This document shows, piece after piece, positions 1-55,044 of a stretch of 64,000 nt of DNA (its first letter is position 1; each line of letters opens with the position of its first letter). The notes under the pieces were generated by a model. The model searched no databases, had not been told where the DNA came from, and saw nothing but the letters and a program-made list of their open reading frames with translations. Made by a program: the position numbers and the translations under genes. This DNA is from Syntrophobacter sp. (GTDB lineage: Bacteria; Desulfobacterota; Syntrophobacteria; Syntrophobacterales; Syntrophobacteraceae), in contig JBDKTY010000067.1 of assembly GCA_039679945.1 (NCBI GenBank), positions 2,414-66,413 of the forward strand. Reading direction: 5' to 3'.

Positions 1-648
1 GAGCAGTTCATCGTATCTGTCGGCACTGAGAAACACAAATTCCGGTCCATCCCTGTACTGCGAGGTGACCTGCCGGACAGAATGGATAAAACCACCCTCT
101 GCCCCATTGACTATGTACATTCTTTCGAGTGTGGGCTGCAGGTGAAGAATGAGATCGATGGTTTGCCGGATATCCAGATCGACCACTACCGGGATAATTT
201 GTCTCGAACTATGCTCGGAGGGGTATTTTTCGATGGAAGCAAGAACAGACACGACAGGGGTTCCCGGCGAAAGCCGGCTGCCCCGGTTGAGCACAAAATC
301 GGTGGCCAGACTGCCAAAGGTAATGATCGCATCAAACTTCCTGGGCCCGTACTTGGCGGTGTAATAGGTGGCCAGGGAATCGAGGTACCCGCTGCTTTTA
401 TTGCGATTCAGGTCCAGGTTTTCATGAGAAATGTCGAATGAATTCAGGTCATATGGCCCCAGAGCTTTGGCGATCCCCGAGAAAAACATGTCATTCAACG
501 GAAGCGAGCGGTCGAAAGGGTAAATTATAAGGAAGCTGGGCCTGCTGCTCTCCGCGGAAGCAGAACCGTACTGGCAGAACAGCAATGCGGCAAGGACAGC
601 GACGACCGACATGGAGCGCAGCCCCCATATCCATAAATCTCTATTCAT
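1..648 (-). CDS. Periplasmic solute-binding-like sensor domain protein, 3' end truncated by the window edge; paralog of the N-terminal domain of the kinase at 4629-7028
   Basis: The reverse strand reads MNRDLWIWGLRSMSVVAVLAALLFCQYGSASA... from ATG at 648 and stays open to position 1. It aligns with kinase residues ~50-250 (IIYPF, ENLDL, YLDSLA, FDAI, LSPG, TIDLI, LQPTL, SQYRDGPEF). It is absent from the ORF track because it has no stop in the window. Confidence 0.7.
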   Translation of the reverse strand, partial: MNRDLWIWGLRSMSVVAVLAALLFCQYGSASAESSRPSFLIIYPFDRSLPLNDMFFSGIAKALGPYDLNSFDISHENLDLNRNKSSGYLDSLATYYTAKYGPRKFDAIITFGSLATDFVLNRGSRLSPGTPVVSVLASIEKYPSEHSSRQIIPVVVDLDIRQTIDLILHLQPTLERMYIVNGAEGGFIHSVRQVTSQYRDGPEFVFLSADRYDELL

Positions 649-798
649 CCCTTTCTCCTGAAGTGCATCCGGCATCAATTTTTTGGTCCCTCTTCCCGGG
701 GTCGAAAAACCACCGTGATCTTTTTCACTCTTTTGAGTTTGGTTGCAATTGATCCGAACCTTAACCCACCAACAGAATAGTTCAATGATACTCGGTTC

Positions 799-817
799 GT
801 GTTGAAAGAATTCACAC
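799..817 (+). promoter_or_regulatory. Candidate enhancer (UAS) element GTGTTGAAAGAATTCACAC
   Basis: An identical 19-mer occurs at 7183-7201. It lies 186 nt upstream of the -24 element here and 185 nt there. Outer arms GTGT/ACAC are inverted. Confidence 0.45.
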
Positions 818-984
818 TCATCTTGAAGCGGATGAGAACCTGAAAACCCCTGCAATTAGACAAGCCTTTTGCATAGCCATCCAGCCTGTGCTCCCGCGGG
901 AAGGCATCACACGTTCTTCCGGGCAGGATCGAGCGCTTCATGTTTTCTGCCCGGCCACACTTCGAGCGTGCACGGAACATTCCA

Positions 985-1000
985 TGGCGTGGATCTTGCC
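985..1000 (+). promoter_or_regulatory. Sigma-54 (-24/-12) promoter candidate for 1142-2797
   Basis: TGGCGTGGATCTTGCC fits TGGC-N7-TTGC with correct GG-N10-GC spacing. It lies ~140 nt upstream of the ATG and matches 7368-7383 at 15 of 16 positions. Confidence 0.6.
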
Positions 1001-1141
1001 ATATATCCCGGTACAACGTTGGAACACGGCCTGTTCATGCATGTTTTTTGCCAAGGGTGACCGGTGGTGGTCTCTGAGCCGGCCAGGGACGAATCGGCGA
1101 CATTTCGGGACACAAGGACCAACCATCACGAAGGAGATCTA

Positions 1142-2797
1142 ATGAAGCGTTTTCTCGCGGTACGTACTTTTGCAGTGCTGGTACTGATAATGCTTGCCTT
1201 TGGCGCGGCGCCGGTTTTGGCGGAGGACACACCAGTCAATTCCAATGCGGGCACGAATGCAACTATAAACGGCCCAAAAACTAACCCGTACCTGGCATCC
1301 TCGCTCTACGGAATTGTACATTTTGACCCTTCCTCGAGCGACTCCACTCCCTACGGACCTCCCAAAGGCGTGTTCGTCGCCGATTCGAGGGACCAGAAAG
1401 TCGCTTACGCCGCTCCGGGTAACCTCATGATGGTTGCCTCCACGGACCCGCACTACATGTGGGAACCGGGAAGCGATCGCGTCCAGTACATACGCAAAAG
1501 CGGCGGCCAATGGGTACCGGTCGCAAGATTGGATATCCTTAACAAATTGAACTCATCCTTTGCAAAACTCACAAATCCAACAATCCGCAAATTCGGCAAG
1601 ACCTCGGTGGCTGGAATGACTCCGAGCGAAATGGATACATGGATGCAATCCATCCTTGGCACAAACTACAGTTCGCGGGGGGGAAATGGAATTTACACCC
1701 TGGTTGATAACAAAAACGTGCTCTACGCCGTCTACAATGGAAGCATAGTCGGTATTGGCCTTAAGGACCCGAATCGCCCCGAGGCAGGTCTTAAGATTAA
1801 ATACAGACTGGATGATCCCGTCACCAAAATTCAGGGTGTCAGCGGCGCTCGTGTCGGCGGTCTGAGCATGACCTATGACGGTCATCTTATAGTGACTTTC
1901 AGCAATGGAATATCAGTAGTCGATCGCAAGCTCACCCTCAGCACCAAATCGTACTACGCTTTCGGCACCGGCGAGCGGGTGACTAACTCGATTTGCGTCG
2001 ACGAGAATAACGGCATTTATGTAGCGAGCAATTCAATCATGCGCAAACTGGTTTGGACCGGCACAGCCCTTTCCGACCAGGCAAGCGACGGCGCTTGGTC
2101 GAGCACATATACTTCGGGTACTGAAACCGCCCCTATTGTCAGATTCGATAACGGGACCGGGTCCACCCCGACCCTTATGGGTTTTGGCAGTGATACAGAT
2201 AAGCTCGTGGTCTTAACCGATGGCGCCAAGGTAATGAATCTGGTGGCGTTCTGGCGCGATGCGATTCCCGCGGGCTTCACCGAACGTGTTGCAGGGCAGA
2301 TTCAAGTAACCTGCGGTTATAAGACCCTGCCCGAATGGATACAATCGGAGCAATCCGTGGTTGTAAGGGGCTATGGGGCCTTTGTAGTGAACAACATTCC
2401 GGAATCGGTCCCCGCTGAACTCAAGGCAGGCAACCAGATGACCAAGGCTGGCCTTCTGGGGCCGACATACACTCCGCCTTATGGCGTCGAACGCTTTGCG
2501 TGGGATACCACAACGCACTCATGGAGTTCCGTATGGGGGCGGTCGGATGTCTCATCTCCCACCATGATCCCGATCCATTGTGATACCGGCAATATGGCCG
2601 TCGTAGGCGGTTACATGCCCGATCTGGGTTGGGTAATACAGGGAATGGATTGGGATACGGGCGATACCGTCCACCTGACGTTCCTGGGCCCCTGGAACTT
2701 AGGAAATGGATACTATGCCATCGTGCAGTTCCTCGGGAACGGGGACCTGGTTCTCAACGGATTCGCCGGTTCATTACGGGTGCACTATGATCAGTAA
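1142..2797 (+). CDS. Secreted hypothetical protein (551 aa)
   Basis: AAGGAG RBS before ATG 1142. Signal peptide MKRFLAVRTFAVLVLIMLAFGAAPVLA. The composition is rich in Gly, Ser, Thr, Tyr and Trp, which I read as possibly beta-rich (not predicted). I recognise no family. Confidence 0.8.
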   Translation: MKRFLAVRTFAVLVLIMLAFGAAPVLAEDTPVNSNAGTNATINGPKTNPYLASSLYGIVHFDPSSSDSTPYGPPKGVFVADSRDQKVAYAAPGNLMMVASTDPHYMWEPGSDRVQYIRKSGGQWVPVARLDILNKLNSSFAKLTNPTIRKFGKTSVAGMTPSEMDTWMQSILGTNYSSRGGNGIYTLVDNKNVLYAVYNGSIVGIGLKDPNRPEAGLKIKYRLDDPVTKIQGVSGARVGGLSMTYDGHLIVTFSNGISVVDRKLTLSTKSYYAFGTGERVTNSICVDENNGIYVASNSIMRKLVWTGTALSDQASDGAWSSTYTSGTETAPIVRFDNGTGSTPTLMGFGSDTDKLVVLTDGAKVMNLVAFWRDAIPAGFTERVAGQIQVTCGYKTLPEWIQSEQSVVVRGYGAFVVNNIPESVPAELKAGNQMTKAGLLGPTYTPPYGVERFAWDTTTHSWSSVWGRSDVSSPTMIPIHCDTGNMAVVGGYMPDLGWVIQGMDWDTGDTVHLTFLGPWNLGNGYYAIVQFLGNGDLVLNGFAGSLRVHYDQ

Positions 2798-2945
2798 CCG
2801 GCAAGTCGCAGCCGACGAGTCGTCCAGTAGTTGGCGCGTTGTTTGGAGAAATTGAATAAAGACTTTGGTTGAGCACACCCGGTCCCTCCAGAATCCCCCC
2901 TCCGATGAGGGGCCGGGATTGTTCCTTTTCTTCAGCAGGTATCAG

Positions 2946-3104
2946 GTAGGTTGGGGTGAGCGGAGCGAACCCCAACACCCACGCATGCGGAAAATGTTGG
3001 GGTTCGCTCCACTCACCCCAACTTACGAGGTACGGGATTATCCCAACCTACGGGCTACGGGCTTGTTGCACATGTTGGGGTTCGCTCCGCTCACCCCAAC
3101 TTAC
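2946..3104. repeat. REP-like hairpin repeat, 3 copies (one inverted at 2946-2977, two direct at 2994-3026 and 3072-3104)
   Basis: The unit TGTTGGGGTTCGCTCC(A/G)CTCACCCCAACTTAC has an 8-bp stem GTTGGGGT/ACCCCAAC. It gives the spurious peptide MLGFAPLTPTY in the ORF track. Confidence 0.75.
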
Positions 3105-3237
3105 GGGATTACGGGGCTAAAGGGCTACAGGGCTCTCGGAGGGACGATCCCGGTCCCCTTGATCCCGGTCCCTTTTTCCAGCATGATGGGCTGACCAGCC
3201 TCGGATTTGGAACGCGACCAGACCGATGCCGGCCGGG

Positions 3238-4632
3238 TTACTTCCTGAGCCTCTTGTTCAACGCCGACCGGGTAATTCCCAGCATTGACGCCGCAAGGCT
3301 CTGATTGCCCCCTGACCTTATCATGGCCTCGGAAACCAGCGATTCCAGGGCTTCCTTGATAGTCGGCAGTCTCTCGGCGTATTGATAGAACCTGTCTCCC
3401 TCCACCGGTTTCCGGGGTTCGTCATGGCCCCGGTCCATGTGTTCCCGAAAAGAGGTCATCGACATCACCCGCGAAGAATTCTTGCCGACGGCGTCGTAGA
3501 TCATCGCCCTCAATTCCCGGATATTTCCAGGGAAATTGTACGCCATAAGGTGGAGTGGAAGCTCACGGGGATACAGCGGCTTCGGTTTTCCAAAATCGCG
3601 GGCGGCCTCTTCGATGTAGCGGTCCAGGAGCAGTGAAACATCAGTCAGCCTTTCCCGCAAAGGCGGTATATGGATATGGTGCGTCCTGAGACGATAGTAG
3701 AGGTCCTGCCGCATGAAGCCGTCAGTCACTAGCTGTTCCGGTTCCCTGTTCGTGGCCACCACGATCCGTGCTTGCACGGAGCGCGGCTCGTCCGAACCGA
3801 GAGGGAAATACTCCCTGTCCTGGATCACTCGCAGCAGCTTGATTTGAGAAGCCGCCGACAGATCGCCTATCTCGTCGAGAAAAATCGTTCCGCCCGCCGC
3901 CTTTTCTATGAGTCCGCTGCGAACCTCCGTTGCACCGGTAAACGCCCCCTTCCGGTGTCCGAAAAGAGTATCGGAAAACGAGTGATCGTCCACCCCCGCC
4001 GCATTCACGGCGATGAATTCGCCCCGCCTTCCGCTTGCAAGGTGAATGGCCCTCGCAAACAGTTCCTTCCCCACGCCCGTCTCGCCCGTGATAAGCACGG
4101 GTTCGCTTCCCTTCGCTATGGCCTCGCAGTACATGAAGAGGCCCATCATTTTCTTGTCCCGGGTGACTATGGCGGAGAATGCCTCGGGGTTCTTCAGACT
4201 GTCGGTAAGTATATGATGCAACAGCAGATCATTCTGTCGTTTCAACCGGCGGTAGTCGATCGCCCGTTTGATGCTCGATGAGAGCTGATCGGCATCCACA
4301 GGCTTGGTCAGATAGTCGAATGCTCCTTTACGAATACACCGGACCGCGGTCTGAATATCGTTGACCGCGGTCATCATGATCACCTGGATATCGGGATGCT
4401 TCAGGGCGATCTCCTCGAGCAGGCTCTCTCCCGATCTTTTCGGCATGATGATATCCAAGAGAACTGCCTCGATGTCATTGGTTTCCAGGAGGCCCATGAC
4501 TTTTGTCTCGTCCTGGCACGGAAGAAGGTTGTCGAAGCCGTTGAACTCCAAAATGATCCTGAAACTCTCCAGTGCCTGGGGTTCATCGTCCACAAGAAGT
4601 ATCGGATGTTCAGGTGTGAAATGGATGCTCAT
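3238..4632 (-). CDS. Sigma-54-dependent response regulator (NtrC family: REC + AAA+ + Fis-type HTH)
   Basis: Receiver ILLVDDEP...LLDIIMP, Walker A GETGVGKE, GAFTGA sigma-54 contact motif, and C-terminal HTH LAASMLGITRSALNKRLRK. The ATG at 4632 overlaps the kinase stop (ATGA). Confidence 0.93.
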   Translation of the reverse strand: MSIHFTPEHPILLVDDEPQALESFRIILEFNGFDNLLPCQDETKVMGLLETNDIEAVLLDIIMPKRSGESLLEEIALKHPDIQVIMMTAVNDIQTAVRCIRKGAFDYLTKPVDADQLSSSIKRAIDYRRLKRQNDLLLHHILTDSLKNPEAFSAIVTRDKKMMGLFMYCEAIAKGSEPVLITGETGVGKELFARAIHLASGRRGEFIAVNAAGVDDHSFSDTLFGHRKGAFTGATEVRSGLIEKAAGGTIFLDEIGDLSAASQIKLLRVIQDREYFPLGSDEPRSVQARIVVATNREPEQLVTDGFMRQDLYYRLRTHHIHIPPLRERLTDVSLLLDRYIEEAARDFGKPKPLYPRELPLHLMAYNFPGNIRELRAMIYDAVGKNSSRVMSMTSFREHMDRGHDEPRKPVEGDRFYQYAERLPTIKEALESLVSEAMIRSGGNQSLAASMLGITRSALNKRLRK

Positions 4633-7028
4633 GAATTGCTCCTGTTGTCGCTGCTGCACGCGGGAAGCTCCAGGACGGCGGTCGTACCCTCCCCCGCGCT
4701 GGAAGAAATGAGAATGCTGCCTCCATATGCTTCGACAATCTTCTTGGAGATGGCGAGACCCAGCCCGGTCCCCCCCGTCTCCCGCTTTGTCGTGAAAAAC
4801 GGGTCGAAGATCCTGTTCAGGTGCTCCGGCTGGATGCCCTGTCCGGAGTCTCTCACCTCCAGGAAAACCTTCCCCCTTTCAGCATCGTAATATGATCGTA
4901 TGCTCAAACACTGCTCCGTTGCGGTCAGCGCCTCGGCTCCATTGAGGATAAGATTGATCATAACCTGTCCCACGCGCTGACCGTTCGCCTCCACTGCCGG
5001 CAGATTCCCGCCATATTCCACGAACAGGTTGTCCGTCGACTTCTTCAGCTTGTTTGCTAACAGGTTCAGGGAAGACTGCAGGACGGCATTGATATCCACC
5101 TGTTCGGTCATCCCGGAAGGCTTTTCGGAAACGAACTCCTTCATGTCCGACACAATATTCTTGATTCGCTCCGATCCTTCTATGATGCCGTTCAAAAGGA
5201 TAGGGATATTTTCCCTGGCTCGCGAATAAGGGAGCTTTGCCACGGGGAAGTCCCCATTCTCCAGGGCATGTTTGTCGAGTATTTTGACTACGCTTTCCCA
5301 CGCCTTCTTCAACATCGGGGCATTCAGGAAGATGAAGTTATTGGGGTTGTTGATTTCGTGCGTTACACCGGCCGCCATGACTCCCAGGGAAATCATCTTG
5401 TCGGCGTGAACCAGTTGTTCCGCTCTTTCACGGGCTTCACGCTCGGCCAGCTTTCTTTGCGTTATGTCGAGAAGACACCCGATGAGGTGCGCCCTACCGT
5501 CGAGCACGACCCTATCGACCGTTTTCAATACGAAGACGTCCCTTCCCTGGCCTGAGACAAGCCTGTCTTCGAACGAGTCCGTCCCATTTGCGGATACATC
5601 TTCGGGCGTCTCGGATAGAAAGCCGTGGAAGCAATCCGGGCACAGACTGCCGGTCATATTCTCCGGAGGAATCCCCAGGAGTTCGGCGGCGGCCCGGTTT
5701 GCCTGCCGGATCGTCCCCGATTTGATATCGATCAGGGAAACCCCTATTGGGATTGAGGACAGCAGGGCCTGTAGGGTGGCTTCGCTTTCGCGAAGACTTC
5801 CGAGCGTCCTGTCCTGCAGGTCCCTGGCGTGGCCCAGTTCTTCCTGTTTCTCTTCCAGTTCCCTGCATGTGCCCCGGAGTTCCTGTTCCGCCGCCTTCCT
5901 GCTCCTCCACTGGATGAACAGCCAGAAGATAAGCGTACCCTGGGCAAAGAAAAAAAGAAGCGCGCCTCCCACGTGCCCCCTATAGTCGCGCCACAGGGAA
6001 GGGGCCCTGTTCACGACCTCGAAGCCGGCCAGCAGGTTCTTTTCGGAAAGACCCCATCTCGTCATCTGCCGCTCATCGACCTGCCGGATCGTAGACAGTC
6101 TGGTTTCGCCGATTGCGGCCGCACCATCATCCATGCCCAGGACCCCAGCCAGAAGATGGCCCACGGCAAGGCCACCTTCAAATACCGACGACATGGAGCC
6201 CCCAACTATCCCGGTGTACATATACTGGTCAGTCATTCCGTACACGGGACAGCCCGCCGTCTCGGAAAGTCTCCCGGCGACAGACTGTGAAGTGTATGAC
6301 CTGCCCGATCCATCCCTCATAAAACTTAGAAAGAGGATTGCGTCATGGCTATCCAGCTTTGCCGCGGCACTAAGCAGTTCCTCATAACTGCTTCCAACCG
6401 AAAATGCGAATTCCGGTCCATCCCGGTATTGTGAGACAACCTCCCGGATCTTCCAGACACTGCGCTCATAGGGGTGAGATCCGGAGACTATGTGGATTCT
6501 TTTGAGAGTGGGCTGCAGGCGCACAATGAGGTCAATGGTCTCCCGGACATCCACACTACTGAAAACCGGATAGACTTTCCTCACGGAATTCCAGGAAGTA
6601 TCTTTCCCTTTCAACGAAAGGGTCGCCAGGACGGGCGCACCGGGTGAGAGCGATTCGCACCGCCTGAGCAGAAATTCAAGCGACCAGTCGGTGACTGCCA
6701 CGATCGCATCGAAGTTTGTGGATGCATATTTGGTTGCCAAAGAACCGGCCAGGGAATCCAGGTATTCGTTACTGTCGATCCTGTCCAGGTCCAGGTTTTC
6801 CTGGCTGATCTCAAAGGTATTCAAATCAAAGGGTTCCAGGGCCTCGGTCAAACCCGATGAGAACCTGACACTAAACGGAAGCGCGCGGTTGAATGGGTAA
6901 ATCACGAGAATTTCGTGCCTGCCGGAACTGCCCGCATGTGCCGGATGCAACTGTAACATCGGCAATACCATTGCAAGGACCAGAATCACGAGGCAATGAG
7001 TAACCCGCAGCCGGGGACCTCTTTTCAT
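4629..7028 (-). CDS. Sensor histidine kinase (periplasmic solute-binding-like domain, TM, coiled coil, PAS, HisKA, HATPase)
   Basis: H-box AAGVTHEINNPNNF and ATPase motifs DSGQGI / GGTGLGLAI. I chose the start at M11 (GGAGAG RBS), supported by the conserved 5' block at the same offset as in the paralog at 1-648. Confidence 0.9.
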   Translation of the reverse strand: MKRGPRLRVTHCLVILVLAMVLPMLQLHPAHAGSSGRHEILVIYPFNRALPFSVRFSSGLTEALEPFDLNTFEISQENLDLDRIDSNEYLDSLAGSLATKYASTNFDAIVAVTDWSLEFLLRRCESLSPGAPVLATLSLKGKDTSWNSVRKVYPVFSSVDVRETIDLIVRLQPTLKRIHIVSGSHPYERSVWKIREVVSQYRDGPEFAFSVGSSYEELLSAAAKLDSHDAILFLSFMRDGSGRSYTSQSVAGRLSETAGCPVYGMTDQYMYTGIVGGSMSSVFEGGLAVGHLLAGVLGMDDGAAAIGETRLSTIRQVDERQMTRWGLSEKNLLAGFEVVNRAPSLWRDYRGHVGGALLFFFAQGTLIFWLFIQWRSRKAAEQELRGTCRELEEKQEELGHARDLQDRTLGSLRESEATLQALLSSIPIGVSLIDIKSGTIRQANRAAAELLGIPPENMTGSLCPDCFHGFLSETPEDVSANGTDSFEDRLVSGQGRDVFVLKTVDRVVLDGRAHLIGCLLDITQRKLAEREARERAEQLVHADKMISLGVMAAGVTHEINNPNNFIFLNAPMLKKAWESVVKILDKHALENGDFPVAKLPYSRARENIPILLNGIIEGSERIKNIVSDMKEFVSEKPSGMTEQVDINAVLQSSLNLLANKLKKSTDNLFVEYGGNLPAVEANGQRVGQVMINLILNGAEALTATEQCLSIRSYYDAERGKVFLEVRDSGQGIQPEHLNRIFDPFFTTKRETGGTGLGLAISKKIVEAYGGSILISSSAGEGTTAVLELPACSSDNRSNS

Positions 7029-7182
7029 TTCTCTCTCCAAAAGCACACTCGACATCAATTTCTTTGGCTCTCTCTTCCAAAGGCCTGATTGAGCGATGGT
7101 GATTTATTTCACCCTGTTGAATTTGGTGTCATGAGTCCGGATACAGATACACTAACAAAATAATCGAACGCCGACCCAACAC

Positions 7183-7201
7183 GTGTTGAAAGAATTCACA
7201 C
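7183..7201 (+). promoter_or_regulatory. Candidate enhancer (UAS) element, second copy
   Basis: Identical 19-mer GTGTTGAAAGAATTCACAC, followed by a conserved CTT..AGC.GATGAG.AC block as at 818-840. Confidence 0.45.
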
Positions 7202-7367
7202 CCGCCTTCCAGCCGATGAGGACACGAGATCGCATTCATCCGGCGGGTCCGTTCACTATCAGCCCGCCCCCGATTCGTCGCGAAACAGTATCCCGCGCCG
7301 TCCGGGATGGAGTCGGACGCTCCGAGGTTTCCGCGCGACAGTCTGTGACCTTGCACAGATTGTTCCG

Positions 7368-7383
7368 TGGCTTGGATCTTGCC
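7368..7383 (+). promoter_or_regulatory. Sigma-54 (-24/-12) promoter candidate for 7595-8907
   Basis: TGGCTTGGATCTTGCC has correct GG-N10-GC spacing and lies ~210 nt upstream of the ATG at 7595. Confidence 0.6.
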
Positions 7384-7594
7384 AAGAATCTCCACAAACA
7401 CGGACTCCATGGGTTGCCTGGCGCGGTTCCATGAAAGGAGACGGCCCACGCCGCCGCTTTTCATACGAGCCACTCCAGCCGGCATGGAAAGGAGGTGAGG
7501 ACTTCTATCCTGCTCCGTACAATCGATAAATCGCGACTGATGCTATTCCATGGCCCATCTTCAATCATCTCATTAGCGGAAGGCTGAAAATCAA

Positions 7595-8907
7595 ATGAAA
7601 AAAAGAACAGTATTCGCCACTTTGCTCGTCCTGACTCTTATAGCCCTGCAGGGACTCAAGGCTGAAGCCCGCAATCCGCTTGCAACGAACGACCAGTTAT
7701 ACGCGGAATACCTGGCTACATACATGATAGCAACTCCTGAAGTGGAGGCGGCAAAAGCAACGTTATCAACGAACTGGCAGGCCCTCCTCGGCACCGTGAG
7801 CGCCGAGCAACTGGCGTATCTCCAGGAAGCAGTCGATGAGTCGGCATTCGCATCGGCGCTTAGCGTGCAGGGCAGCGATCCCAACTATCCGAAGGCCATT
7901 TCGACTCTTGCGGCCCCACATTCCTGGCATGGCATGGATGTCCCCGGTTCCAGGTCGGTATTTGATAACCCTGACACGATTTACAGGAGTATCAAGATCG
8001 ATCCGACCGCGAGCTACGTAATTAGAGGCAAACGGGCACAGGTCCCGCCGGTGGATGAGAATTTTTCTCTGTGGGATGCTTCCAATAATACGATTTCGAA
8101 TATGCGGGGCAAGGACCTGGTCACAAAAGCGGACGGATCATTTACCATCACGGTGGACAGCAATCCCGCAAATGGCAGGAAGAACCACATCCAAACAACC
8201 TCGGCATCAAAAACCATATTTGTCCGGAATACCGTTAATGATTGGCAACTCAGAGGTTTACCAAATTGACTGTCGAACGGATCGACGATGGGACGACACT
8301 GCCCGACCCCAAGACGTTCGATGCCATGGTCAGTCAGATAGCTGCTTCCATTCCGAGCACCACCGCCATCAATATCTTCAATACCAGGGCGAATGCGCAG
8401 GCTGTCAATACAATCCCCGCTATAACCCGGGGAGGGAGCGCGGGGACCTTGTCAACCCAGGCGCAGGAATACAGTTCATGGAAGATTGCCGATGACGAGG
8501 CATTGATCGTAAAAGTCAACCTGGGCGGTGCAAAATACCTCATCTGCCCGGTTTATGATAAATGGCTGATCACAACGGACTACATCAACCATACGCAGAC
8601 CCTGAACAACGCCCAGGCAGTACCCAACCCCAATGGCACTTACACCTTCGTGATCTCCGTGCAGGACCCCGGTGTCTACAACTGGATCGATACGGTCGGA
8701 ATGCACGAGGGATATCTCAACCTCCGATGGCAGGCTCTGCCCGGCAAAGTCCCGGCGACCGGTGACGTATCGGCGACCATGAAACTTGTCAAACTGGTAT
8801 ATCTGAAAAGTATTCTCCCTCCCCATACCAAGTGGGTCACCAAGCAGGAACGCAAACAGCAACTCAGGGAACGCCGCGAGGCTTATGCGAAAAGATATGC
8901 GGAGTAA
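7595..8907 (+). pseudogene. Secreted DUF1214-like protein split by a single-base frameshift near 8240
   Basis: ORFs 7595-8269 and 8242-8907 abut in different frames. The second has no RBS or ATG. One extra G in GATTGGCAA would read ...FVRNTVNDWATQRFTKL... Motifs PPVDENFSLWD and NWIDT..GYLNLRWQ recall DUF1214. The signal peptide sits on the first part only. Confidence 0.6.
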
Positions 8908-8940
8908 CGGCTGGAACGTGTGAAGAATCGGGCAGCGGAC

Positions 8941-9068
8941 TGATACGGAGTTGCGTTCAAGATGAGTCTATCCCTAAATCGAAGATCCCGTTCAGAATTG
9001 ACCCGTTCTACCCTTCGATACCTCAGGGCGAACGGGGGTATATCCTCTTGAACGCCAATTAGTATGAG
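8941..9068 (+). repeat. 128-nt structured intergenic repeat, copy 1
   Basis: 125/128 identical to 45643-45770. Closing inverted repeat GCGTTCAAGA (8953-8962) / TCTTGAACGC (9046-9055). Inner hairpin CCCGTTC...GAACGGG. Confidence 0.8.
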
Positions 9069-25320: not shown

Positions 25321-26775
25321 ATGGCGGGATTTGAACTTAAACAGCAACTGAAATTGAGCCAGCAGCTCATAATGACCCCGCAGCTCCAGCAGGCCATTAA
25401 GCTGCTGCAGCTATCGAGGTTGGAGCTTCTCGAGACCATTAACCAGGAACTCGAAACGAACCCCCTGTTGGAAGAGACTCAGGAAGAACTTCCCACCGAA
25501 CAGGATGCTGAGCTGGAAACCCTCACCAATACCGAAACTCCCTTCCAGGAAGTGCAGCTCTCGGAAACAAAGATAAGAGAAGACTTCGATTGGGAAGGCT
25601 ACCTCGACGAATACAACACGAGTACTCCCGTCCTTGTAGAGACCGATCCCAACCAGGAATGGCCCAGCTTCGACAGCCGATTGACCGAACCCACGACCCT
25701 GGAAGACCACCTTGTCTGGCAGCTTCGCCTCTCCGACTGCAACGAGCAGGAAAGGGAAATCGGCGGCACCATCATAGGCAACCTCAACAAAGATGGCTAC
25801 CTGGAAGCGACGATTGAAGAAATCGCCGAAATGACGGGAGCTGACACGAGCAAGGTTGAACAGGTCCTGGCAAGGGTGCAGACTTTCGACCCGACCGGTG
25901 TCGCCGCGAGGGATCTAAAGGAATGCCTTCTGATCCAGGCCAGGGCGCTGGAGCTTGAAGATCCGCTGGCTGTCCGCATCATAGAGGATCATCTCCATTA
26001 CCTCGAAACAAAGAACTACGCCGCGCTCGTCCGCACGCTGAAGCGAAGCCCCGAGGAAGTCAAGGCAGCGGTGGAAATCATCCTCGGACTGGACCCGAGA
26101 CCCGGAAGCGCCTTCAACAAGGAAACCGTTGAGTATATCAGCCCCGACATATACGTTTTCAAGGTCGACGAGGAATGGGTGATACTGCTCAATGAAGACG
26201 GAATGCCCAAGTTGAGGGTCAGCCCCTACTACAAGGATGCCCTTGGAGAGGGGGAGTCGCTTTCAAACGATACCAGGGACTATATCCAGACGAAGTTGCG
26301 CTCCGCCGCATGGCTGATAAAGAGCATCCACCAGAGACAGCGAACCCTCTACAAGGTTTCCCACAGCATAGTAAAGCTCCAGTCGGACTTTTTCGAAAAG
26401 GGCGTGGCGCACCTCAAGCCCATGGTGTTGCGCGACATAGCCGAAGACGTCGGGATGCATGAATCCACCATCAGCCGGGTTACCGCCAGCAAATACATGC
26501 ACACGCCGCACGGAATTTTCGAACTCAAATACTTCTTCAACAGCTCCATAAACAGCGTCATGGGTGAGGCCGTCGCCTCGGAAAGCGTAAAGGAGCGGAT
26601 TCGGCAGATAGTGCGGGAGGAAAATTCCTCAAAACCGTACAGTGACCAGGAGATAGTGGAGATTCTTGAGAAGGAAAATATCAGCATTGCCCGGCGCACG
26701 GTTGCCAAGTATAGGGAAATGCTGGGTATTTTGCCATCCAACAGACGCAAGAAAACTTGCTGGGGCCCCTCCTGA
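25321..26775 (+). CDS. rpoN: RNA polymerase sigma-54 factor
   Basis: Region I LKLSQQLIMTPQLQQAIKLLQLSRLEL and RpoN box ARRTVAKYRE. Confidence 0.96.
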   Translation: MAGFELKQQLKLSQQLIMTPQLQQAIKLLQLSRLELLETINQELETNPLLEETQEELPTEQDAELETLTNTETPFQEVQLSETKIREDFDWEGYLDEYNTSTPVLVETDPNQEWPSFDSRLTEPTTLEDHLVWQLRLSDCNEQEREIGGTIIGNLNKDGYLEATIEEIAEMTGADTSKVEQVLARVQTFDPTGVAARDLKECLLIQARALELEDPLAVRIIEDHLHYLETKNYAALVRTLKRSPEEVKAAVEIILGLDPRPGSAFNKETVEYISPDIYVFKVDEEWVILLNEDGMPKLRVSPYYKDALGEGESLSNDTRDYIQTKLRSAAWLIKSIHQRQRTLYKVSHSIVKLQSDFFEKGVAHLKPMVLRDIAEDVGMHESTISRVTASKYMHTPHGIFELKYFFNSSINSVMGEAVASESVKERIRQIVREENSSKPYSDQEIVEILEKENISIARRTVAKYREMLGILPSNRRKKTCWGPS

Positions 26776-54690: not shown

Positions 54691-55044
54691 ATGCCCAGAG
54701 TAAAAAAGGCGGTGAAGTCGCGCGAGAGGCGCAAGAAGGTTCTAACCGCTGCCAAGGGATACCGCGGTGGCCGCGGCACCCTGATCCGTTCCGCCCTTGA
54801 GACAGTACAACGCGCACTCAAATTCGCCTACCGTGACCGTAAGGTTAAGAAGCGCGAATTCCGCAGCCTTTGGATAATGCGCATAAACGCCGCGGTACGC
54901 GAGCACGATTTGAGCTATTCCCGGTTTATCAACGGCTTGAAAAAAGCCAACGTCGATCTTGACCGCAAAGCGCTGGCCAACCTCGCTGTAAACAACCCGG
55001 AAGCATTTGCCGAATTGGCGAAAATTGCGAAAGAAGCCGCGTAG
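54691..55044 (+). CDS. rplT: 50S ribosomal protein L20
   Basis: [26 protein letters not shown]... Confidence 0.97.

Follow-up and report, generated by a model that had tools for sequence, protein, structure and literature searches.

Sigma-54 promoters carry a -24/-12 element with a consensus similar to TGGCAC-N5-TTGCW, in which GG and GC are exactly 10 nt apart. The GC is followed, about 12 nt downstream, by the transcription start, and the enhancers typically lie at -100 to -150. NtrC recognizes the site TGCACC-N5-GGTGCA. The pspA promoter of E. coli is a verified sigma-54 promoter. In the zra region of E. coli (NC_000913), GG-N10-GC elements are found in both directions, TGGCACGGAAGATGCA towards zraP and TGGCATGATTTCTGCT towards zraS. 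Work by Leonhartsberger et al. in 2001 reportedly revealed that both zra promoters require sigma-54 and that the repeats of this region are bound by ZraR. In Pseudomonas putida, the gene for the regulator DmpR and the sigma-54 target promoter Po fire divergently, back to back (PMC5175336). The dmpR promoter is sigma-70 dependent, and it does not overlap Po (PMC5175336). Sigma-54 regulons have been said to centre on the cell exterior (PMC3162934).

The locus that we compare with these systems is encoded in a window of 64,000 nt (positions 2414-66413 of contig C67), which is part of a metagenome-assembled genome (6.36 Mb, 302 contigs). It contains two near-identical 16-mers, which we refer to as P1 and P2 (Table 1). 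We consider these very probably to be real sigma-54 promoters, of the ordinary kind found in NtrC-class two-component cassettes. The model that we favour with high confidence is that of a self-contained cassette, where the motif would be a -24/-12 promoter under the control of its own kinase/activator pair.

The paired elements and the genes they face

The initial annotation had pointed to a near-identical pair of motifs, each conforming to the sigma-54 rule TGGC-N7-TTGC (which amounts to GG-N10-GC). Coordinates and letters were confirmed in the window. TGGCGTGGATCTTGCC and TGGCTTGGATCTTGCC are both on the plus strand, they differ only at position 5, and the spacing is exact in both. Each matches 8 of the 11 consensus positions. 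The similarity of the flanks is also borne out by the alignment, with GCAC.GA...TTCC.TGGC upstream and AACACGG downstream being present at both sites. The bare rule is not rare: three matches are found in the window and 2.4 are expected. By our own rough estimate, about 50 pairs of 16-mers that differ at no more than one position should occur by chance in 64 kb. Thus, the pair becomes meaningful by its context alone. The third match to the rule in the window is TGGCCAGCGCTTTGC (54965-54979, minus strand).

The P1 and P2 intergenic regions are homologous across about 450 nt (mean column identity of 72% in the alignment), and the genes to the left of both motifs are paralogs. The likeness of the motifs is thus due to duplication and is not a coincidence.

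Table 1. Positions of the promoter elements, dyads and genes in the window
Feature	Position	Strand	Remarks
P1 -24/-12 element TGGCGTGGATCTTGCC	985..1000	+	GG at 986-987, GC at 998-999; PWM score 14.9 bits
P2 -24/-12 element TGGCTTGGATCTTGCC	7368..7383	+	PWM score 12.5 bits
P1 proximal dyad TTGAAAGAATTCAC (TTGA-N6-TCAC)	802..815		centre 176 bp upstream of the T of TGGC; candidate UAS
P2 proximal dyad, identical to that of P1	7186..7199		centre 175 bp upstream
P1 distal dyad GTGATCTTTTTCAC (GTGA-N6-TCAC)	715..728		centre 263 bp upstream; about 40 bp from the kinase start codon
P2 distal dyad GTGATTTATTTCAC	7099..7112		centre 262 bp upstream
Candidate divergent sigma-54-type element TGGAATGTTCCGTGCA	969..984	-	GG-N10-GC; abuts P1 via the palindrome CCATGG
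Candidate divergent element CGGAACAATCTGTGCA beside P2	7352..7367	-	GG-N10-GC
HK1, N-terminal periplasmic sensor part of a histidine kinase (HK2 paralog)	1..675	-	runs beyond the window start, followed by EBP1
EBP2, NtrC-class response regulator	3238..4659	-	receiver, AAA+ Sigma54_activat (GAFTGA), AAA lid and HTH_8
HK2, sensor histidine kinase	4629..7058	-	periplasmic domain, PAS, HisKA-like, HATPase_c; likely start ATG 7028
P1 cargo, 551 aa, signal peptide	1142..2797	+	no Pfam/NCBIfam family; predicted beta-propeller fold
P2 cargo, signal-peptide protein	7595..8907	+	overlapping frames 7595-8269 and 8242-8907; weak DUF1214-like similarity
rpoN (sigma-54)	25321..26775	+	complete; AID, CBD and DBD domains all above Pfam cut-offs

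A position weight matrix (PWM) was seeded with 48 intergenic, correctly oriented near-consensus sites from the host genome. With this matrix, the three host-genome sites reach 14.9, 13.4 and 12.5 bits and occupy ranks 123, 218 and 300 among 2817. Within this range, 19-41% of the genome-wide matches are intergenic, compared to a background of 12-14%. The PWM over-penalises deviations because of the choice of its seeds. The scan of P1 and P2 that had been proposed at the outset is thus suggestive of a sigma-54 promoter, but motif strength by itself is not decisive.

The sigma-54 reading is decided by the context of the motifs: dedicated activators, the highest conservation in the region, orientation towards the cargo genes, absence of a sigma-70 pair, and the lack of protein-level conservation of the ORFs that cover them. 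With this, the promoter reading put forward in the initial annotation is in line with every available sequence-level test. Both elements are intergenic, are oriented towards their cargo gene and have no competing coding function. The two minus-strand ORFs that run across the motifs (675-1016 and 7129-7485) were rejected as genes, as their products are unrelated (E = 0.32) while the DNA is homologous. A scan of both intergenic regions with the sigma-70 consensus did not reveal a sigma-70-like hexamer pair, neither for the cargo genes nor for the kinase operon. Rfam searches returned nothing meaningful for positions 600-9000 of the window nor for the sister-cassette loci. The 5' leader of the P1 cargo has no stable fold (z = +1.47), and a riboswitch or attenuator reading is without support. 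From the position of the GC, transcription from P1 would start at about 1011, resulting in a leader of about 131 nt to the ATG at 1142. For P2, the start would be at about 7394, with a leader of about 201 nt to the ATG at 7595. Both downstream ORFs begin with signal peptides, and the motifs thus face secreted-protein genes as had been claimed. The host genome codes for about 60-70 proteins with a Sigma54_activat domain.

A GAFTGA-type activator had been noticed between the two motifs. It proved to be EBP2, which has a receiver, a Sigma54_activat (E = 1e-55) and an HTH_8 domain; one such gene is found beside every cassette. The genes for HK2 and EBP2 overlap by about 30 nt. In HK2, the Pfam match to HisKA is below the cut-off, while that to HATPase_c is above it. 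With a receiver, a sigma-54 AAA+ domain and HTH_8, and with a kinase partner in the same operon, this is a two-component system of the NtrC class. AlphaFold returned an unusably poor model for the sensor domain of the kinase (pLDDT 50). This domain is common among kinases from the bacterial family of the host (48 of 80 genomes). More distant kinases that share it (about 200 bits) are encoded in 52 of 122 genomes of the class, and no promoter layout common to these was found.

The AlphaFold model of the P1 cargo (pLDDT 80) has only generic beta-propeller matches, and there is no sequence match in PDB. Homologs with 41-55% sequence identity are encoded in Syntrophaceae, Synergistota, Bacteroides/Parabacteroides and Flavobacterium (L008-L018). 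Outside the genus, the promoter is absent from the genes for these homologs; one locus from a Syntrophaceae MAG (L010) was inspected in detail, and those from Synergistota and Bacteroidota were covered by a motif scan only. Within the genus, the promoter precedes cargoes that are unrelated to each other: beta-propeller proteins, DUF1254+DUF1214 proteins, a weakly PA-like protein with a SnoaL-like protein behind it, and a sulfatase together with its maturase. As the distant cargo homologs are devoid of the promoter, it goes along with the regulators and not with the cargo. The P2 cargo is not an ortholog of the DUF1254+DUF1214 cargo (genome G011). Its signal peptide is found in the first frame only, and the split into two frames might stem from a frameshift, from an assembly error or from decay of the gene.

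That the cargoes are exported agrees with the proposed focus of sigma-54 regulons on the cell exterior (PMC3162934). The cassettes link signal-dependent sigma-54 control to exported proteins of unknown function, among them the beta-propeller family, DUF1254/DUF1214 proteins and the sulfatase with its maturase. An inconsistency in public data was also noted: the same 10,817-bp contig is found in two MAGs, as LUZV01000157.1 (Anaerolineales Chloro_02) and as LUZZ01000286.1 (Syntrophobacterales Delta_01). As the phylum labels differ, one of these binnings must be wrong.

Cassette copies, candidate activator sites and rival explanations

(Probable tandem copies.) A third copy of the element, TGGCCTGGATCTTGCC, is found at C203:14968. 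It has the same flanks and is located between a third kinase/activator pair and a paralog (68% identical) of the 551-aa P1 cargo. C203 ends with exactly those 127 bases with which C67 begins. This overlap is inside paralogous activator genes, and the activator that is cut at the two contig ends fits together across both. The overlap and the matching activator halves indicate that there are probably three cassettes in tandem: EBP3-HK3 divergent from P3 and cargo3, then EBP1-HK1 divergent from P1 and cargo1, then EBP2-HK2 divergent from P2 and cargo2. The assembly break between C203 and C67 was probably caused by the repeat. A fourth, more distant cassette is found on C134, and two more activator paralogs are encoded at contig ends. 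Paralogous kinases are 61-67% identical and paralogous activators 70-87%.

(Sister cassettes.) The C134 cassette belongs to a sister subfamily that contributes five further promoters, its own included. Four of these have TTGT rather than TTGC, a variant that is conserved in four genomes. In the sister cassette at G000 C134:4731-9231 (also L064, L065 and L066), a sulfatase with a Tat signal (CSPSR motif) is followed by a radical-SAM maturase. The long leader of the sulfatase cassettes contains a perfect 9-bp inverted repeat (ATATGCAGA-TAA-TCTGCATAT) and a CACTC...GAGTG hairpin, which are kept across genomes. When 39 genomes of the genus were scanned with the pattern, 11 matches were obtained, compared to one in a reversed control. 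Eight of these are in the characteristic layout, with the activator and kinase genes divergent from the promoter and its secreted-protein gene (three in the host genome and five in three sister genomes). Matches in G031, G025 and G009 (L021, L023 and L024) are not surrounded by a cassette and were dismissed as unrelated or due to chance. The regulatory module thus duplicates as a unit and exchanges its cargo. Its annotation covers promoter, enhancer dyads, kinase, activator and cargo, and describes a sensor-cassette family in an uncultured, syntroph-like deltaproteobacterial genus.

(Conservation.) Eight promoter regions from four genomes were aligned over 400 columns (mean pairwise identity 0.52). 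With 0.93, the -24/-12 element is the best-conserved 16-nt stretch, ahead of the proximal dyad TTGARAAAAYTCAY (0.81), the distal dyad (0.74), the block ACACAAACATAATA between the dyads (0.72) and a block immediately upstream of -24 (0.70). In the window, the inter-dyad block (ACMCAAACAKAATA) is found at about 764-779 and about 7150-7165, and its reverse complement is similar to a TATTAT -10 hexamer. A sigma-70 -10 reading of this block was discarded, as no fitting -35 was found.

(Dyads.) We consider the TTGA-N6-TCAA dyads, which are kept about 175 and 262 bp upstream in most of the 13 promoters analyzed from five genomes of the genus, as candidate activator sites. Measured from the T of TGGC, their centres are fixed at -174 to -178 and at about -262. 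For three promoters of the sister subfamily, the best match to the distal dyad is instead near -293 to -309. Relative to the transcription start, the dyads would be at about -200 and -290, which is farther than the typical enhancer distance. Substitutions in the dyads are symmetric (TGAA..TTCA to TGAG..CTCA, and GTGA..TCAC to TTGA..TCAA), which is the pattern expected if the predicted site is bound by a dimer. When the host genome was searched for a dyad at this distance in combination with TGGY-N7-TTGY, the four cassettes and one other match were retrieved. The outer bases of the dyad vary along with the recognition helix of the activator: ...GIT(R)SALNKR is paired with G..C and ...GIT(P)SALNKR with T..A, which represents few independent events. 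These paired changes provide a small natural series on how paralogous activators stay apart.

(Proposed mechanism.) From the arrangement of the sites, their conservation and the domains of the proteins, we infer the following course of events. The periplasm-sensing histidine kinase would phosphorylate its cognate NtrC-type enhancer-binding protein. Dimers of this activator would bind to the two dyads, which are located about 200 and 290 bp ahead of the transcription start, and would then oligomerise. By DNA looping, the activator would contact the sigma-54 RNA polymerase, which is held in a closed complex on TGGCnTGGATCTTGC. The activator would spend ATP to open this complex, so that the adjoining gene for the exported protein is transcribed. 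The cassette has been duplicated repeatedly, with promoter and dyads moving together with the kinase and activator genes while the cargo changes.

(Activator assignment.) By synteny, EBP2 is expected to serve P2, while its paralog EBP1, encoded upstream of the window, is expected to serve P1. In a variant of this model, EBP2 drives both promoters as a single regulon. P1 and P2 have the same proximal dyad across 20 nt, and EBP1 and EBP2 have the same recognition helix (...MLGITRSALNKRLRK), so that cross-talk is possible. However, in all genomes examined, each promoter is adjoined by a divergent kinase/activator pair of its own, and HK1 and HK2 share only about 55% identity in their sensor domains, which points to different signals. 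We thus consider control of both promoters by one activator to be unlikely, and prefer the assignment of each promoter to its own pair.

(Another operator.) The conserved block of about 40 nt might be the operator of another protein or the target of another sigma factor. In that case, GG-N10-GC would be incidental and the cargo promoter would be elsewhere. A number of features agree with this. The promoter spacer TGGATC on the plus strand is invariant, although sigma-54 recognition has no need of the spacer, and about 20 nt upstream of -24 are likewise conserved more than sigma-54 would require. Four of the 13 promoters have GT at -12 in place of the canonical GC, and the PWM scores are only moderate. 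Some other constraint acts on this promoter block. A departure from the sigma-54 consensus is also seen at position -22, where G, T or C are found but never A. Yet in all 13 promoters, which are homologs and not independent occurrences, GG at -24 and TTG at -15 to -13 are invariant and their spacing is fixed. Every cassette has a dedicated sigma-54 activator, which requires a sigma-54 promoter as its target, and a sigma-70-like promoter was found in neither intergenic region. GT at -12 is also seen in the pspA promoter of E. coli (NC_000913; TGGCACGCAAATTGT), which shares the -12 TTGT with the sulfatase-linked sister cassettes. We consider a foreign operator improbable and retain the assignment of P1 and P2 as -24/-12 promoters.

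(Relics.) That the motifs are unused relics, kept through recent duplication or homogenised by gene conversion, might be argued from the frameshifted P2 cargo (the cassette may be decaying), from a cargo in genome G002 that looks truncated, and from the tandem paralogy of copies from the same genome, which makes gene conversion possible, but this is highly improbable, as the 19-nt core keeps 16-19 bases in common between every pair, also across genomes, while its surroundings have diverged (42-81% identity between pairs outside the core; 42-60% for the intergenic DNA around it), as the dyads and their distances are kept, and as every cassette has retained intact genes for its kinase and its activator.

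A candidate promoter in the opposite direction

The conserved flank upstream of the -24 element matches GG-N10-GC on the minus strand. It may represent a second sigma-54 promoter, arranged back to back with the first and serving the kinase-activator operon. This is a tentative reading, to which we assign slightly less than an even chance. Hypothetically, the minus-strand element beside P1 would start transcription at about 958.

In subfamily A, seven of the eight promoters have an invariant TTCC (GGAA on the minus strand) and an invariant TGCA, while the bases between them vary. Invariant ends with a variable middle are the bipartite pattern that a -24/-12 element should have. Promoters of the sulfatase subfamily have GGGACrATTwTTGCA at this place, with a largely different spacer and with an offset of one base in register to the plus-strand TGGC, but both TGCA and the GG-N10-GC spacing on the minus strand are retained. 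One subfamily has CCATGG at the junction between the two -24 elements, and the other has CCTGG. Genome G013 is the one genome that lacks the minus-strand element. The minus-strand elements reach PWM scores of only 3-9 bits, in part because their position -23 is not C. Back-to-back pairs of sigma-54 elements are not enriched genome-wide: seven were found, three of which are from these cassettes, and about five are expected. From these pair counts, the chance that any one site has such a partner is about 0.6%.

If this second promoter exists, both dyads would be upstream of the cargo promoter and at the same time 140-240 nt downstream of the kinase promoter, inside its leader. One enhancer would then serve two promoters from opposite sides. 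The kinase-activator operon would be subject to positive autoregulation, and occupancy of the two promoters would probably be mutually exclusive. It is tempting to speculate that the cassette would in this way choose between output and self-amplification. This would be an unusual sigma-54 architecture.

Comparison with characterized sigma-54 systems

(NtrB/NtrC and AtoS/AtoC.) The cassette regulators resemble those of NtrB/NtrC-glnAp2 and AtoS/AtoC-atoDAEB. They share the combination of receiver, AAA+ domain (GAFTGA) and Fis-type HTH, the kinase partner, and the logic of an enhancer with a -24/-12 promoter. The best NCBIfam matches are to AtoC, NtrC and AtoS. Scores are below the equivalog cut-offs for AtoC (324 vs 714 bits), NtrC (301 vs 559), AtoS (186 vs 646) and also ZraS (137 vs 479). 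The dyad TTGA-N6-TCAA differs from the NtrC site, and the targets are exported proteins of unknown function.

(PspF and DmpR.) As in PspF-pspA, an activator gene is divergent from a sigma-54 target. PspF, however, lacks a receiver domain and has no partner kinase, and apart from its -12 region the pspA promoter is near the consensus with TGGCAC. The divergent arrangement of dmpR and Po is also distinct: in the cassettes, the candidate promoter of the regulator genes is sigma-54-like, and the two -24 elements would touch each other.

(ZraS/ZraR.) The E. coli zra system has a gene for a periplasmic protein that is divergent from an operon encoding a histidine kinase and an NtrC-type activator, and it has intergenic inverted repeats, as do the cassettes. 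In zra, the repeats are located between two promoters that are about 140 bp apart, whereas in the cassettes both dyads are found towards the kinase gene, at a distance of 175-265 bp to the promoter of the cargo. The kinase promoter that the cassettes may have would abut the cargo promoter back to back, unlike that in zra. The sensor domain and the cargo are unrelated to ZraS and ZraP, and the NCBIfam scores fall far short of the cut-offs for ZraS and ZraR. Even though its enhancer sits between the promoters, zraP-zraSR is the closest known layout.
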